From Candidatus Aenigmatarchaeota archaeon (GTDB lineage: Archaea; Aenigmatarchaeota; Aenigmatarchaeia; CG10238-14; SCSR01): a DNA stretch of 64,000 bases. This document shows positions 39,001 to 45,000 of the stretch, in pieces. Numbering within the stretch: the first letter of the stretch is position 1; the number at the start of each line of letters is the position of its first letter. The position numbers were made by a program. The DNA is taken from the NCBI GenBank assembly GCA_038998335.1, contig JAVZHQ010000001.1:608001-672000 (forward strand), given 5' to 3'.

Positions 39001-42000
39001 GCCTTCATTACCATTTTAACTCTTCTCATTTCTTTACTTATAGAGAAAAAGTTCGGAATTTCTTACAGTAAAATTGTTTTTTTAACTGGTTTTATTCTTT
39101 TTTCCTTAACAATAGCGAAAATTCCCCAACTGGACTTAACTAGGGTATTTTATGTCCTAACTTTCTCTTTTCCATTTCTTGCTCTCATTCTTCTTGTAAA
39201 ATGGAAAAGAGAAAATAAGGTAGTAACTTTAATCCAAACTTTTGACGGAATCGTAACTTTTGTTTCTATAAACTTTTTTGGCTACTCTGAACAACATGTT
39301 CTCCCAACTCTTTTGATTCAAACTTTTGGAAGTTTTACTTTTCCACTAATTAAAATAATAGCAATAGTTATTGCTTTGGTTTTAATTGACAAGTTTTTTG
39401 AAGATAATGAGTTAAAAAATTTTGTCAAGCTTTGCATAGCAATTTTAGCAGGAGGAACAAGCACAAGAGATTTTACTTGCCTACTTTCTTCCTGTTCACC
39501 TTCTTAACCCATATAACTGATAATTAGAGTAACATCAGCCAAATTATAGAAACCGTCAGGAGGTTCTGTAGAAAAGGATATAAGATTCATTCCTTTTCTT
39601 AAATTTATTTCACCAGGATAAAGTGTTTTGCTTATAATTTCACCAGCTTTTTTATTAACCTTATAAGCTTCTTTTTCGTTTATTTTTACTATCAAATCTT
39701 TTGTTGGGTTAGAGTCTTTAACTCTTGCACTAAGTAAAGCGTACTTAAAATTGTTAACCTCTTTATCACCAAGCTCAAAATTAAAACTTTTCTCACTAAC
39801 TCCATAGTAAAATATTCCAAACTTTGCACTAGAGATTTTGTAAACAGTGCTCATCCAGAACTTCCATCCAGGCAAACCTGCTTTTATTGTAACATAGTTT
39901 GATTTCTCTATTTTAGAAGCATTTAGTGGGATAACTACTTCTCCAGGTTTTACGTTTTGGTTGTAAACTTCTTCGCCGTTAAACTCAACTATCAAATTTC
40001 CTGCGTTGTTTGTATCTTCTACCAAAATACTGATAAAACCACCGTTGATCATTCGAAACATTTCCTCGCTTATTGATTCATGTGTTAGAGTTGAGGAATA
40101 CTCTGAAAAATAACCTTTAGAAACCTCAAAACTATACTTTGAAGCTAAAACTTCTGAACCAACTGAATGACTTACAGAAAAGTCTCCAAAGTAAAAGTTT
40201 CTCTGGAGTTGCTGAACTAGAACTTTTGTTACGTTTATGGTTACAGGAATCGAGACATTTCCACCAGTAAAAGCTATTTGAATCTTTCCTCTGTATACTT
40301 TTTCGACTGTCATTTCTGGCACAAATATAGTAACAGTAACAACTTCTGAACCAGAAACGTCAAAATTTTCTTTATCAAAACTTAAGAAAGACCTTACTTC
40401 TCCTGTTACTATAAAAGTAACGTTTGTTGCAGTACCGTTTAAATTTAACTCTAAAGTTTGATAATTTCCTGGTTCAATTTTTACTGAAATGGAAGAAGGA
40501 GTAACGTTCAAAAATTCTGGTGGTGCTGAAGTCCAAGCCACCATCATGACTATTATTAGAACAAGCCCTGCGAGTAAAACAAAGGCAAACTCGTCTATTC
40601 TTGCCTGTGCTTTCAAAAAAACACCTAATTTAACTTTGTTTTTTTAACAATTAATTTTTATTTATTATTATGAAAACTATTGAAAAAAACTTTGAAAAGG
40701 GTTTTGTAAGGCTTATTCCTGAGAATTTTTTAGACTTATGGCATCTTTCTAAAATAATTGAAGTTAAAGATAGAATAACAGCTAGAACTACAAGAAACAT
40801 TTTTGTTGAAAGAGAAGGAAAAAAGGAAAAATCAAGAAAAGTTGCTTTAGTTCTTTCTCTCGAAGTAGAAAAAGTTGAGCTAGAAAAAAATAAGTTAAGA
40901 ATAAAGGGAAAGATAGTAGAAGCTCCGGAAGAAGTTCAAAAAGGAAGTTATCACACGATTGAAATTCTTATAGGAAATAGTTTTACTTTAGAGAAAAAAG
41001 AGTGGAAAAAAGAACAAGTAGAAAAAATAGAAAAACTAACAAAAAGAATTAAAAAAGCTACTTCGCTGAAAGAGTTTTTTGTTCATATAAACAAGCTTGA
41101 CGGCTTAGCAATTTATGGTTTGGAAGAAGTTAGAAACGCTGCTTTAATTGGAGCGATAAAAATTCTTTTTGTTCCTTTTGAAAATTTGAGTGAAAAAATT
41201 GAGGAAGTAATAGAAGAGGTGGAGAAAAAAGGCGGAGAAATAGAGTTCGTTAGCGAGAAGGAAGAGCTTGGTAAAAAATTTTTGAAAGAACATGGAATTG
41301 GAGCAATTCTCAGGTTTAAAATTAGCTAGCTCTTTTCTTCAAAGAAGTTATGTAGCCTGCTATCATGTTCCTTAACTTCTTTGATTTTATTTCTATAAGT
41401 TGTTTAACAACTTCTTTATTCTTGGAAAAATCACTTGAAAACTTGTCTGGATATTTTTCTACAAGCTCTAAAGCGATGCTTTTGACAAAAGAAGTTTTAA
41501 TTCTTCCCATGCAAATCACTCGCTTTTCTGAAATACATAGAGACCACTAAGGTGTGACTCTTGATAAAGAATAATAAGTTACATCTCCTTCCTTATCTAC
41601 AACAGCCCACCACATAGTAGCTCTTATGTTGTGTGCAAGCCTAACTGCACGAGACATTTCTGGTAATGAAAAAGCAGCTTCCTCAGCAACTGCATGAACT
41701 ATTGCTTTTGTATGCTCATGAGGTGCTTTTGGTCCTCTCTTCAGTTTAACTCCTCTTTCATAAAGTCTAAAGTGAGCACCAAACTTGAAACCAGTTTTAA
41801 CAAGATAACCTCTATTCCTTAAGTCCCGATAAACTATAAATTGTGGATGAAATTGGTTAACATTTTTTGTTCCTATTTCTATTAATTCAGAAAGTTCGAT
41901 TTTTCTTTTTTTATCATTTTCTTTAACAAAAACTCTAATCTTTCCCTTTTCAAGTAAGTAAGCAGCCTCTACCAAATCCAACTCAAGTCTGTTTGGGTTT

Positions 42001-45000
42001 TCTTCTGGTAACGGTTTACCATAACCAGAATCATCGTAAAGAATTACTGCTTCAGGATCCCAAATTATTACTCTATTTTCTAATAGTTCACCTTCCCAAA
42101 CTTTTTCGCTCATGAAATCACTTATTCTTTATAATTTAGCTTATACCTTAAATTTTTAATTGTTTCCTGCATTTTTCGCAAACATTTTTTGTTTTTCTGT
42201 CAACATCGAAAACAGTGTTTGAAAAACACATTACGCATTCTGGATTTTCACAGTGTTTTAAGCCTAAAACATGACCCATTTCATGTATAGCTTCTTTTAC
42301 TGCTCTTTTTATTAAAATTTCTTCGTTGTAAGCCTGTTTGTAAAAAGTGGGGTTAAGTCTTGCGATGGAAACTACAGCGACTCTTCCATTTAGCTGGGCT
42401 TGACCAAAAACAAAGTTTAGTTCTTCTGCGTACAAATCTTGGTCTGTTATACCCAAAATTCTTCCCTTAAAGTTTCTTGAAAGAAAGTCTAAGATTTGAG
42501 GGGCTATGTACTGATGTCTGTAAGGATTGTAATATTCTTTTGGTAAACCTTTTTCTGGAAGAATTTCTGAAATTAAACCAAATTCGTTTCTTAGCTCGTC
42601 TTTTACACTGTTTAAAACTCTTTCAGGAATTTTTCCAAAGGGAATTATTGTCAATTTCATAATTAAATAATGGTTAAAAGAATAAAAAGAATTAACTAGT
42701 TAAAATTTTTTAGTAGTTTTAAAACAATAAAAAATTATGCATTCAAAAATTGAAACTTGTTATGAAAAAATTTGTAAAATGGCAAGAGTTGCCTCAAGCG
42801 TTAATAGAGAATATGTATAAAAACTTATGGGACAGGAGGGATTTGAACCCTCGACACACCGGTAACCGCTTAGTTCTTCAGCCGGTTGCTCTCCCGGGCT
42901 GAGCTTACAGCACATTAGTGATACTGTCCCTACGACTGTCCCATTTCCTACATAATAAAATGGTTTCTAATTTATTTTGCTTGTTTAGATTTTGAAATCC
43001 TATCTCCTCTTTAAAATTAATTAATGAATTTAACCTTTTAATACGTAACCTTATTCCACAAGTTATTACCCCATCCTTTCGTACATTGAGTGTGTTTGAT
43101 ATAAATATTGTTGATTTTATATTAAAGAATTTTTCAAGACCTTCTTTAATCTCATTTAAGAATTGGAAACCATTATCAAGTAAATTTTGGGATTTCCACA
43201 TTTCCAAACCTATAAATGGGTTGTGTTTGCTGATGTCGACCGTGCCTTCACAATTGAAAACCATCCTAACAAAACTTCTGAAACACTCTTTTTCGTTTTT
43301 AATCCAAGTTGGTACAGAAAACTCTTGCATTACCTTACAACCTTTTGGAACCCCTACTAAATGAAGTACTCTACTCAACAATTTACAATTCACGCCAAAA
43401 TTGAAAGTTTTTCCAAATTTGTTTCCCTTACAAGGCCTCACTCTTCCTTTGATACCGAACAAATTAAAAATTTCATTTCCAAATATTTCTAACTCTTGGA
43501 GATCTTTTGAAGTAAAATCAAATCTCCATTTAGGTTCACCTTGGAGATGCCCATCACACATCAAGGCTGCAACTATAGATGCTAGTTGTGGAGAAGAACG
43601 AACAGGAAACCAATTGCTATGTAAATTAATTGAATTTATTGCATGATCTCTCGATTTGAATAACTTTATTACATCTTCTTCAGTTACTAAAATCTCACTC
43701 ATTTTTAACACAAAATAAATAAGAGATAGCCATTTATTTATCTTTCGAAAGTTTAGTTCCGGTAAGTTCTTCTTTTAAGAACTTAGAATCTCTACAAACT
43801 ATTTATTTCTTACCAAGCCTAAACTTTATTCCCTCTTTTATAATAAAAATTAATACCCCCAAAACAACTCTTACTCCTCTTATTATTCCACTTTTCTTCT
43901 TGTAAAGAACTTTTACAGGAACTTGTTTTATTTTAAGCCTATTTTTTAAGGCTTGAATAAACAAAGCATTTTCTATTATGTAGCCTCCATAAACAGCCTT
44001 GCTTAAAGTTTTAATTTTGTTTCCAGCTATAGCTATTAAACCACAATTTGTATCTTTAAAGCTAGTTCCAAAAAGTAGATTAAAAGAGTTCTTCCATACA
44101 AAATTTCCAAGTTTATGTCTAAAAGGAATTTTTTTAAAATCTCTATAGCCTGTAACAAACTCAGCTTCTTTTGCTTCTATCGGAGCTAAAAGTTTTAAGG
44201 CTTCTTCTGGGAAGTATTGTAAATCAGCATCAAGAAGAACAACGGCCTTGACATCTTTCCTTCTTTTCAGGAATTCAAAGCCTGTTTTTAAAGCTTCGCC
44301 TTTTCCTTTGTTTACTTCATGTTTTAACACTATGGCTCCAGCTTTTTTTGCTAGCTCGTAAGTTTTATCATGAGAGCAATCGTCGATAACTATTGGAACC
44401 ATATCAAGTTTTTTAACTCTTTTTACAACTTCATAAATCGTTTTTTCCTCGTTATAAGCTGGTATTAGACTAAAAACTTTCATAAATAGGTTAAGAAAAA
44501 ATAAACTTTTAAAGGTAAACTTTTTTGATTTCAGCCCACCAATTTTTTCGATTGTACAGATTAAGAGTATCTATAAGCTTATCAAAACTTTCCTTTGATT
44601 CAAAAATTGAAGGACGAGAATCTGGCAGGTAAATATGAAAAAATTTTTTTCTACTTTTTGGGTTTTTAGCTCTACTAAAATTTCATAAACAGGTTCTGTT
44701 GCTTTTCCTTTTAAAAATGGTTAAAGTAGCTAAAGATTTATTTTTAAACTTCTCAAAGTATCTTCAAAAATTTTGTAAGTTTTTGAATCGTAAAGGAAAA
44801 ACACAACTCTTTCTATGTTCGTTTTTTCCTTCAAGTAGTTTATAATAGCTTCTAACATTATTCTTGCACATCTTTCTTTTGGAAAACCAAAAGCTCCTGT
44901 TGAGATAGCAGGAAAAGCTATGCTTCTCAAATTATACTTTTCAGCAAGCTTTAGGCTATTCAAAGTTGCGTTTCTTAACTTTTCGTCTTCATTTCCTTCC

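Follow-up and report, generated by a model that had tools for sequence, protein, structure and literature searches.

A lone alpha-type splicing endonuclease with alanine at the catalytic lysine position in an Aenigmarchaeota genome with relaxed introns

How a cell with a single small splicing endonuclease (EndA) gene could process introns that depart from the strict motif is the question raised by this locus, which comes from a very small DPANN archaeon of the Aenigmarchaeota with a 1.0-Mb, 90.4%-complete genome. According to the field's rule, repeated in introductory passages of 2012 and 2018, relaxed introns are cut only by (alpha-beta)2 and epsilon2 enzymes, a rule questioned only by a bioinformatic remark of 2018. 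At stake are whether subunit architecture or loops set the specificity of the enzyme, and how an EndA might act without the lysine of the catalytic triad; the active site described here is a natural Lys-to-Ala one, a change that inactivates other EndAs when it is introduced by mutation. If true, a broad-specificity RNA cutter of 188 residues would also be a handy tool. We consider it fairly likely, taking the reading as a whole, that the protein is the cell's only RNA-splicing endonuclease, a single-unit alpha-type enzyme of the L3-loop-bearing DPANN group, most likely a homotetramer, with alanine in place of the catalytic lysine.

The EndA gene and the search for a second subunit

The gene occupies 41547..42113 on the minus strand of the window, the 64,000-nucleotide stretch of contig JAVZHQ010000001.1 that was analyzed, and encodes a tRNA-intron lyase of 188 residues, as identified by the open reading frame (ORF), Pfam domains, PDB sequence matches, an AF2 model and its fold match. 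The protein contains one match each to the N-terminal domain PF02778 (tRNA_int_endo_N; residues 7–67, 41913..42095, minus strand; 63 bits against a curated cut-off of 21) and to the C-terminal catalytic domain PF01974 (tRNA_int_endo; residues 88–180 with Tyr118, His134 and Arg158, 41574..41852, minus strand; 94 bits against a curated cut-off of 27). Its best solved relative is the alpha4 enzyme of M. jannaschii (1a79; E 1.5e-29, about 37% identity), with an alignment that reaches the last residue. The same structure is the top Foldseek match (TM 0.78/0.85) of the AF2 model, which has a pLDDT of 89.7, and the top matches are all EndA/TSEN chains. The genome-wide survey's note had described a genuine splicing endonuclease colinear with the alpha4 enzymes, and the sequence and fold comparisons bear out both points.

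That note had also called the gene the only one of its kind, while warning that a divergent beta subunit might escape Pfam. PF01974 and PF02778 each matched one place in the genome at E≤10. We searched the 4958 stop-to-stop ORFs of at least 50 residues in the genome with phmmer and with three profiles of our own. The EndA gene was found by phmmer at E 9e-128 (next ORF 0.45), by the A1 profile at 9e-76 (next 0.17), and at 2e-46 (next 0.4) by a profile of the structural unit, derived from 109 alpha'2 N-units and 2 His-less singles. The epsilon-type profile gave the EndA gene at 1.7e-28, followed by two ORFs at 0.012 and 0.013, which were rejected as a second EndA: one is a sub-cut-off PadR-like Pfam match (19.4 bits versus 27) and the other belongs to no Pfam family. 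Neither a second EndA-like ORF nor a separate beta subunit gene was thus found by Pfam, phmmer or the three profiles in the 90.4%-complete genome, and the single-gene claim holds. Each of the 24 genomes from the same family has an alpha-size EndA gene, and no fused form of about 400 residues occurs among the matches listed for them. An (alpha-beta)2 type was discarded for want of a second EndA-like ORF, and an epsilon2 type, with three fused units of about 390 residues and an ASL loop, because the protein is one unit of 188 residues.

The architecture can also be read from the acidic L10 loop, D173-K-E175-G-D177 (41583..41597, minus strand), which aligns with DADGD of the M. jannaschii enzyme. 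Among two-unit relatives, the L10 motif is present in 106 of 111 N-terminal units, 103 of these being non-catalytic, and missing from 116 of 118 C-terminal units, 115 of the 118 being catalytic units without L10. Catalytic Tyr/His and L10 occur together in 19 of 31 single-unit rows, the combination found in the 188-residue EndA. This pattern supports a subunit with both elements, which is what a homotetramer would need. Since each subunit keeps Tyr118/His134, Arg158/Arg185 and L10, the subunits most likely assemble as in M. jannaschii, into a homotetramer.

An undetected partner, be it a divergent or non-homologous structural subunit or the product of a gene in the missing 10% or so of the genome, would make the enzyme a heteromer rather than alpha4. 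A partner without homology to EndA would escape every search, and known beta subunits are short or divergent: the P. aerophilum beta chain has 93 residues, and NEQ261 matches EndA only at E 4e-5. Moreover, some genomes of the same order (G038 and G040) have an epsilon-type EndA as a second enzyme beside the alpha type. We nevertheless regard such a partner as unlikely, because four kinds of profile search returned nothing beyond chance, because the loss of a partner through incompleteness is implausible in all 24 genomes that show only the alpha-size gene, and because L10 is kept, although the C-terminal units of split enzymes are nearly all without it.

Introns in tRNA genes, cbf5 and 23S rRNA

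We re-derived the tRNA introns with our own cloverleaf-plus-excision parser, which takes a cloverleaf with 0–1 mismatch after excision as evidence and requires at least three of the four central pairs, so that central pairing holds by construction. Helices are given as counts of contiguous pairs in the order central/outer/inner, where long introns with an inner count of 0 may still fold an offset helix. The parser found 24 introns in 19 tRNA genes, 17 of the 24 with an inner helix of 0–1 bp; 11 of these 17 are 10–13 nt long. Introns follow position 29 in Thr-GGU, Gly-GCC, Pro-CGG, Gln-UUG and Gln-CUG; the other non-canonical ones lie after position 33 in Arg-CCU, after 45 in Pro-UGG, in the D-arm of Asp and Gly-CCC, and after 8/9 in Asn and Phe. 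Eleven of the 12 non-canonical tRNA introns in the survey's note were thereby recovered; the initiator Met tRNA yielded no solution with up to two introns. Our census contains one gene only for Phe, both Gln, Asp, Pro-CGG, Pro-UGG, Gly-GCC, Gly-CCC, Thr-GGU and Arg-CCU.

Three intron-bearing tRNA genes lie in the window. The substrate gene tRNA-Phe(GAA) (42828..42930, minus strand; Rfam tRNA match, no stem mismatch in the parser) carries a 17-nt intron after position 9 (42905–42921, minus strand; 4/3/3, a strict bulge-helix-bulge motif, BHB) and a 12-nt intron at 37/38 (42864–42875, minus strand; 3/5/0). The tRNA-Asn(GUU) gene (45839..45925, minus strand) was resolved by the parser, its Rfam match covering model positions 9–63 only, and has a 15-nt intron after position 8 (45903–45917; 4/3/2). 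The tRNA-Trp(CCA) gene (55523..55634, plus strand), found by both Rfam and the parser, contains a 35-nt intron at 37/38.

The introns of Phe at 9/10, Asn at 8/9 and Arg-CCU at 33 are near-strict BHBs despite their odd positions and should be cut by any EndA, so that an odd position by itself proves little. The argument rests on the 10–13-nt introns, as they cannot form an inner helix and must be relaxed (bulge-helix-loop, BHL) substrates. The earlier description of relaxed motifs at odd positions accordingly stands for the mini-introns and not for several of the others. The 12-nt cbf5 intron (4/15/1), which the survey had listed, is confirmed: it contains an in-frame TGA, and its excision restores GTLDP, including the catalytic Asp. 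With one EndA gene and with essential single-copy tRNA genes and cbf5 that depend on 10–13-nt introns unable to form an inner helix, the genome is a clean test case. The 11 tRNA mini-introns and the cbf5 intron argue against an alpha4-type EndA that cuts strict hBHBh' motifs only, and the relaxed motifs are probably cut by the 188-residue EndA itself.

RNA contigs from one study, which differ from the genome by 1–2 letters and concern strict or near-strict BHBs only, show splicing. A 43-nt 23S rRNA intron with a 4/2/4 BHB, one of the three rRNA introns counted by the survey, is exactly skipped in a contig of run X7. In both X7 and X11, RNA contigs connect the 23S end to its start exactly at a 4/23/12 BHB, a circular junction. 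BHB cutting and ligation thus take place in vivo on 23S rRNA in near-identical organisms.

The alpha4 enzyme might instead be narrow, cutting strict BHBs only and relying for relaxed introns on helpers such as L7Ae on a K-turn or K-loop, RNA chaperones, or the completion of the motif by alternative or trans pairing. Assays in the published passages limit alpha4 enzymes to the strict BHB, and box C/D-like words, e.g., AATGATGA ... CTGA in the Ser introns, would suit such helpers. These words occur in long introns only, however; introns of 10–13 nt leave no room for either a K-loop or an inner helix and yet interrupt single-copy essential genes and cbf5, and by eye, without a scan, no tandem G-A was seen in the 12-nt Thr-GGU intron. 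We therefore give this explanation a low probability, the basic L3 loop of EndA being the simpler one.

The active site without the triad lysine and the neighboring loops

Y118 and H134 align with Y115 and H125 of the M. jannaschii enzyme, and in a set of 121 close homologues Y118, H134 and R158 are each invariant (121/121). The bulge-recognition pair, either Arg + Arg or Arg + Trp, whose roles are taken from Hirata 2012, is kept as R158 and R185, the latter in 120 of the 121 homologues with Trp in one. The triad lysine (K156 in M. jannaschii, K282 in ARMAN-2, K334 in M. kandleri) is absent from EndA: an ungapped stretch, AHNIRAT versus AHSVRKK, places Ala165 in its column, next to Arg164 (41619..41624, minus strand). 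A165 is found in 120 of 121 homologues (Ser in one) and R164 in all 121. All catalytic C-terminal units listed, read by eye, have K in this column. According to published passages, K282A in ARMAN-2 and K334A in M. kandleri abolished cleavage, so that an unassisted active site is not guaranteed in the 188-residue EndA. The lysine-less state is common to single-unit enzymes grouped in the tree (12 rows, support 89, not starred). The Lys-to-Ala replacement had been overlooked by the earlier reading.

An L3-type insertion, VKLKRGPKAPHE (residues 122–133; 41715..41750, minus strand), lies between the catalytic Tyr and His, as judged from their spacing and from the alignment to the N. equitans alpha loop. 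The spacing is 15 residues in EndA against 9 in M. jannaschii (1a79) and ranges from 5 to 17 among 150 representatives. In the alignment, the insertion is matched by loops in 3iey_A and 4fz2, with K125, R126 and K129 opposite basic residues in the N. equitans loop; K129 is present in 121 and R126 in 119 of the 121 homologues. The L3 block has a lower pLDDT of 69 in the AF2 model. In the passages of Hirata 2012 on the basic N. equitans loop, the run of basic residues is expected to widen specificity. In published passages on ARMAN-2, alanine substitutions in the L3 loop (K241A, K244A) were without effect, and widening of specificity by L3 is thus proven nowhere. The N-terminal loop YGKPLPEENPNR sits within the PF02778 domain at the site of the CSL/ASL loops; it exceeds its M. 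jannaschii counterpart by 4 residues and falls 6–7 residues short of those in A. pernix and S. tokodaii. K44, the conserved lysine of the Crenarchaea-specific loop (L1) in A. pernix, aligns with N39 of EndA, by alignment only; the nearby K33 and R42 are invariant (121/121).

In the proposed homotetramer, one pair of subunits would cleave the two 3-nt bulges while the other pair would hold the dimers together, each subunit keeping Tyr118 and His134 as putative general base/acid, Arg158 and Arg185 as bulge clamps, and the acidic L10. The basic 6-residue insertion lies beside the active-site His, as in N. equitans alpha. The scissile phosphate would most likely receive its positive charge from the invariant Arg164, the invariant loop Lys129 being a less likely source. 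Tentatively, we extend this to a fifth functional kind of archaeal EndA, which combines broad specificity with an alpha4 architecture and a Tyr-His-(Arg or loop-Lys) site: with the triad charge moved to Arg164 or Lys129, a movable basic loop might enable a simple homotetramer to place the scissile phosphate when a bulge-helix-loop substrate lacks one flanking helix. The opposite outcome, a dead or crippled EndA left with an RNA-binding or structural role while another nuclease cuts the introns, would agree with Ala165 and the inactive mutants of two other EndAs but is highly improbable, given the sole EndA of the genome, the near-complete conservation of Tyr118, His134, Arg158, Arg164, Lys129 and Arg185, which is unlike a decaying active site, the lysine-less state of the whole tree group, and the exact BHB cutting and ligation in the RNA contigs.

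Relation to known EndA systems

The survey's boldest proposal, that an alpha-only enzyme cuts relaxed motifs, agrees with the lone alpha-size EndA, its dual-role subunit and the relaxed mini-introns in essential genes, but its novelty is not supported. In the passages of Kaneta et al. 2018 (PMC5829648), where the idea of relaxed-intron cutting by such enzymes is already in print, the L3-loop-bearing alpha4 EndAs found in several DPANN lineages are associated with a greater number of disrupted tRNA genes, and subunit type counts least. As described there for DPANN and Hadesarchaea, that class resembles the present case in its single alpha-size gene, its Tyr-His insertion and the abundance of disrupted tRNA genes in the genome. 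The passages of its supplement text contain no Aenigmarchaeota names, those of the article make no mention of a missing catalytic Lys, and our literature search found no published enzyme assay of the class.

The M. jannaschii EndA (1A79) is colinear to the C-terminus and has L10, Tyr, His and both Arg in common with this protein, which is longer by 6 residues in the Tyr-His interval and by 4 in the N-terminal loop and has Ala for K156. BHL-type introns are reportedly uncut by the M. jannaschii enzyme, whereas the genome implies that this protein has to cut them. N. equitans alpha (3IEY chain A), from an (alpha-beta)2 enzyme of reportedly broad specificity, has a basic loop at the same place; unlike the present protein, it needs the separate beta subunit NEQ261 and keeps the catalytic Lys, and its alignment ends before the L10 loop. 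The epsilon2 enzyme of ARMAN-2 (4FZ2, 9W2K) and the epsilon-like ORFs of about 395–400 residues in Aenigmarchaeota of the same order share the L3-type insertion, a DPANN host and irregular introns, but each consists of three fused units and has both the Lys of the ASL loop (GQYGVYK) and that of HSVRK. The epsilon-like ORFs occur in other families of the order, and in the tree the epsilon and epsilon-like catalytic units are set apart as a clade of their own (support 100), which is not sister to the 188-residue EndA.

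Gene context and subunit type

The EndA gene (window 41547–42113, minus strand) encodes a protein of 188 residues and is flanked, according to Pfam, by the genes for ribosomal protein S17e (window 41322–41519) and an archaemetzincin-like peptidase (window 42148–42660), with a tRNA-Phe gene on the same strand approximately 700 bases upstream. Pfam finds one copy each of tRNA_int_endo_N (residues 7–67) and tRNA_int_endo (residues 88–180), far above the cut-offs. The close named homologues are annotated as 'tRNA-intron lyase' of Candidatus Aenigmatarchaeota, with identities of up to 96%. 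Among solved structures, the homotetrameric enzyme of M. jannaschii (1a79) is both the top sequence relative (E 1.5e-29, the alignment reaching the last residue) and the best match (TM 0.78/0.85) to the AF2 model of EndA (pLDDT 89.7). Fold and domains, together with the Tyr, the His and both Arg, place the protein in the EndA family; of the defining features it lacks only the triad lysine. In a nearby gene (window 40670–41329, plus strand), Pfam shows eRF1 domain 1 (residues 1–123) fused straight to eRF1 domain 3 (128–218) with the central domain absent; this product of 219 residues resembles a Pelota/aRF1-like protein of unusually small size.

Among the 50%-identity representatives compared, those closest to EndA belong to families of euryarchaeal-like enzymes with one or two units. 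The two-unit proteins among these representatives serve as an internal control for the catalytic role and that of L10, the acidic loop for dimer-dimer contact: their N-terminal units carry the L10 motif without the catalytic Tyr/His (103/111), whereas their C-terminal units are catalytic and without the motif (115/118). EndA combines Y118 and H134 with an L10 motif (D173-E175-D177), as do 19 of the 31 single-unit rows, and the presence of both features in one subunit is exactly what a homotetramer needs. EndA fits the alpha4 architecture on each testable point and would probably assemble as a homotetramer. Two other single-unit EndA-like representatives, P0262 and P0266, retain the L10 motif but have Lys or Glu for the catalytic His and lack both Arg; in other lineages they may serve as standalone structural (beta-like) subunits.

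The genome-wide survey's note had claimed a single EndA gene in this genome, and Pfam (E ≤ 10), phmmer and three profiles all gave this locus alone. PF01974 and PF02778 each match a single place (E ≤ 10). We also ran four kinds of search against all 4,958 stop-to-stop ORFs of at least 50 residues in the genome. phmmer with the EndA protein retrieved EndA itself (9e-128) and no second EndA (next match 0.45). The profile from 31 single-unit EndAs gave 9e-76 for EndA and then 0.17, the one from 109 non-catalytic N-terminal units of two-unit EndAs plus two His-less single units 2e-46 and then 0.4, and the one from four epsilon-type EndAs of relatives 1.7e-28 and then 0.012 and 0.013. The last two weak matches are not EndA-like: C1:244076–244381 has just a sub-cut-off PadR-like Pfam match (19.4 bits versus 27), and C1:189652–189813 has no Pfam family.

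A non-homologous partner subunit working beside EndA is possible. A Pfam-detectable partner missing through incompleteness (9 contigs, 1.009 Mb, completeness 90.4%) is unlikely, since every search pointed to a single place and, among 40 relatives, an alpha-size EndA gene occurs in 24 of 24 same-family genomes, fused EndA ORFs of about 400 residues being confined to other families of the order. Weak PF01974 matches in two relatives were set aside, one (G028) being a 182-residue ORF without visible likeness to the relatives' EndA sequences and the other (G009) sitting in an unrelated ORF. The (alpha-beta)2 type was rejected because a beta gene is absent from the genome in all searches of the 4,958 ORFs and in Pfam. 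Compared with the Crenarchaea-specific loop of A. pernix and S. tokodaii, the N-terminal loop of EndA is 6–7 residues shorter, and A. pernix K44 aligns with Asn39. The epsilon2 type was dismissed because EndA is one 188-residue unit, although epsilon-like enzymes with GQYGVYK of the type found in the epsilon2 loop (ASL) occur in other families of the order. Four relatives of this order (loci L003, L005, L008 and L009 in G028, G038, G025 and G030) carry three-unit epsilon-like ORFs of approximately 395–400 residues with the ASL-like GQYGVYK, an L3 insertion and HSVRK, and two genomes (G038 and G040) each contain both an epsilon-like and an alpha-type EndA gene. To Kaneta (2018; PMC5829648), epsilon2 enzymes were known solely from Micrarchaeum relatives.

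The L3 loop and the triad lysine

Between the catalytic Tyr and His lie 15 residues in EndA but 9 in the M. jannaschii enzyme. The additional segment, VKLKRGPKAPHE, lines up with the loop of the N. equitans alpha subunit and with that of ARMAN-2; in this alignment, basic loop residues of N. equitans stand opposite EndA K125, R126 and K129. Kaneta (2018; PMC5829648) gave this loop the new name L3. Hirata (2012) placed the loop next to the triad and expected basic residues in a run there to broaden specificity, although the ARMAN-2 loop mutants K241A and K244A were without effect. EndA agrees with the group of L3-bearing DPANN enzymes in Kaneta (2018; PMC5829648).

The ungapped alignment of AHNIRAT in EndA with AHSVRKK in M. 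jannaschii places Ala165 on K156. Read by eye, all catalytic C-terminal units of the two-unit proteins listed have Lys in this column. Among 121 close homologues of EndA, Ala165 is present in 120, and R164, K129, Y118, H134 and R158 are each invariant (121/121). Lys-to-Ala exchanges are reported to abolish cleavage in ARMAN-2 (K282A) and M. kandleri (K334A), the M. kandleri lysine hydrogen-bonding the phosphate. In a weakly supported FastTree tree of EndA units (25 of 149 inner branches starred), the Lys-less units cluster together (12 rows; support 89, not starred), 10 of them with L3 and 2 without. An association of L3 with Lys loss is not demonstrable on this tree (sign test, p ≥ 0.5), because the Lys state requires just 3 changes and independent pairs are too few. 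Exceptions occur in both directions: P0197 and P0256 lack L3 and Lys, and P0161 and P0164 have both.

Arg or Lys stands one position before the triad-Lys column in 13 of the 14 Lys-less units listed, and the L3-bearing ones have a loop lysine, G[PE]K, in common. These two patterns lead us to favor Arg164 as the residue that would stand in for the triad Lys, while Lys129 is kept as a bolder alternative, ranked below Arg164.

Introns in tRNA genes and cbf5

ARAGORN with introns, and brute-force deletion followed by ARAGORN, proved too permissive for placing introns, and we used our own parser with a T-arm anchor and a strict cloverleaf, which permits no more than two excisions and requires 3 or more of the 4 central pairs for each. 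It regained 11 of the 12 non-canonical tRNA introns proposed in the survey's note, with 0–1 stem mismatches, the exception being initiator Met. Introns of 11–12 nt follow position 29 in Thr-GGU, Gly-GCC, Pro-CGG, Gln-UUG and Gln-CUG; others follow position 33 in Arg-CCU (25 nt), 45 in Pro-UGG (18 nt) and 8/9 in Asn and Phe, or lie in the D-arm (Asp and Gly-CCC). In our census, most intron-bearing tRNA genes are the sole copy for their anticodon.

The parser placed 24 introns in 19 tRNA genes, a count that omits initiator Met, Tyr, Leu-CAA and Ser-CGA (no clean parse within two introns); 14 of the 24 have 4/4 central pairs, at least 3/4 being demanded. Full hBHBh' motifs, the strict form of the bulge-helix-bulge (BHB), occur in 6 of the 24, among them Phe 9/10, Asn 8/9 and Arg-CCU 33. 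An odd position does not by itself, therefore, point to a broad enzyme, but the mini-introns do. The inner helix has 0–1 bp in 17 of the 24 introns, 11 of which are mini-introns of 10–13 nt, too short for an inner helix, and 5 of these 11 lie at the canonical 37/38 site.

A relaxed intron also interrupts cbf5, which has an in-frame TGA within the TruB domain. Excision of 12 nt (AGCTTTGAGGAA; central/outer/inner helices of 4/15/1 bp) brings back GHAGTLDPGVTG, in which the codon for the catalytic Asp spans the joint. The 12-nt mini-introns resemble one another: AGTTTAGCGTAA, AACTTAGCGGAA, AAATTAGTGGAA, AGCTTAGTATAA, AACTAAGCGGTT in tRNA-Phe (window 42864–42875) and AGCTTTGAGGAA in cbf5, the sites outside the window being C1:241552, C1:568199, C1:763905, C1:557019 and C1:283826–284179. 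They may be one spreading family. Most introns, whatever their length, end in GAA or RAA.

The survey's boldest reading, that an alpha-only enzyme cuts relaxed motifs, draws support from the dependence of this genome on mini-introns; it is not new, having been stated on bioinformatic grounds by Kaneta (2018; PMC5829648). The observation is real and well made, and its main idea is already published. We found no bench assay of an L3-bearing alpha4 EndA in the literature searched, which covers subscription journals in part, and the accessible parts of a 2019 review and of the 2025 ARMAN-2 complex paper make no mention of one. What sets this EndA apart is a Lys-less active site in a genome demonstrably reliant on relaxed mini-introns, and this combination makes it a good bench target.

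RNA evidence for splicing and further intron observations

Two metatranscriptome runs of one study contain near-identical 23S rRNA. In RNA contigs of both runs, position 4769 of the rRNA locus L012 (C1:411114–417375) is linked to position 1499, so that the 23S 3' end meets its 5' end in a circular 23S form, with the joint exactly at the cuts predicted by BHB geometry (perfect, 4/23/12). One RNA contig omits a 43-nt intron precisely at a 4/2/4 BHB. Neither joint was found in any DNA run. These joints show endonuclease and ligase at work in vivo, either in this organism or in one very close to it, although they concern strict motifs only. Of 12 skip joints tested, 11 lacked BHB geometry and were discounted as other organisms or chimeras.

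In window 42828–42943, at the tRNA-Phe gene, two copies of the 5' acceptor word GGGACAG are separated by 13 nt, and an alternative parse therefore has a 29-nt intron starting from the upstream copy (4/4/2). A 268-residue LAGLIDADG-like ORF (window 42905–43711, minus strand; PF14528, E 1e-4) terminates within the 5' portion of this gene. The tRNA gene at C2:91229 has two parses, each with one intron of 11 nt. In the first, it is Arg-GCG and the intron lies at 37/38 (0 mismatches, 4/7/0); in the second, which matches the ARAGORN call of Phe, it is Phe-GAA and the intron follows position 29 (1 mismatch, 3/0/0). We take it as Arg-GCG. Box C/D-like words are known from tRNA-Trp introns of Euryarchaeota. 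The long 37/38 introns at C1:504720, C1:281250, C1:405108 and C1:557019 contain such words (AATGATGA ... CTGA) and may encode guide RNAs.
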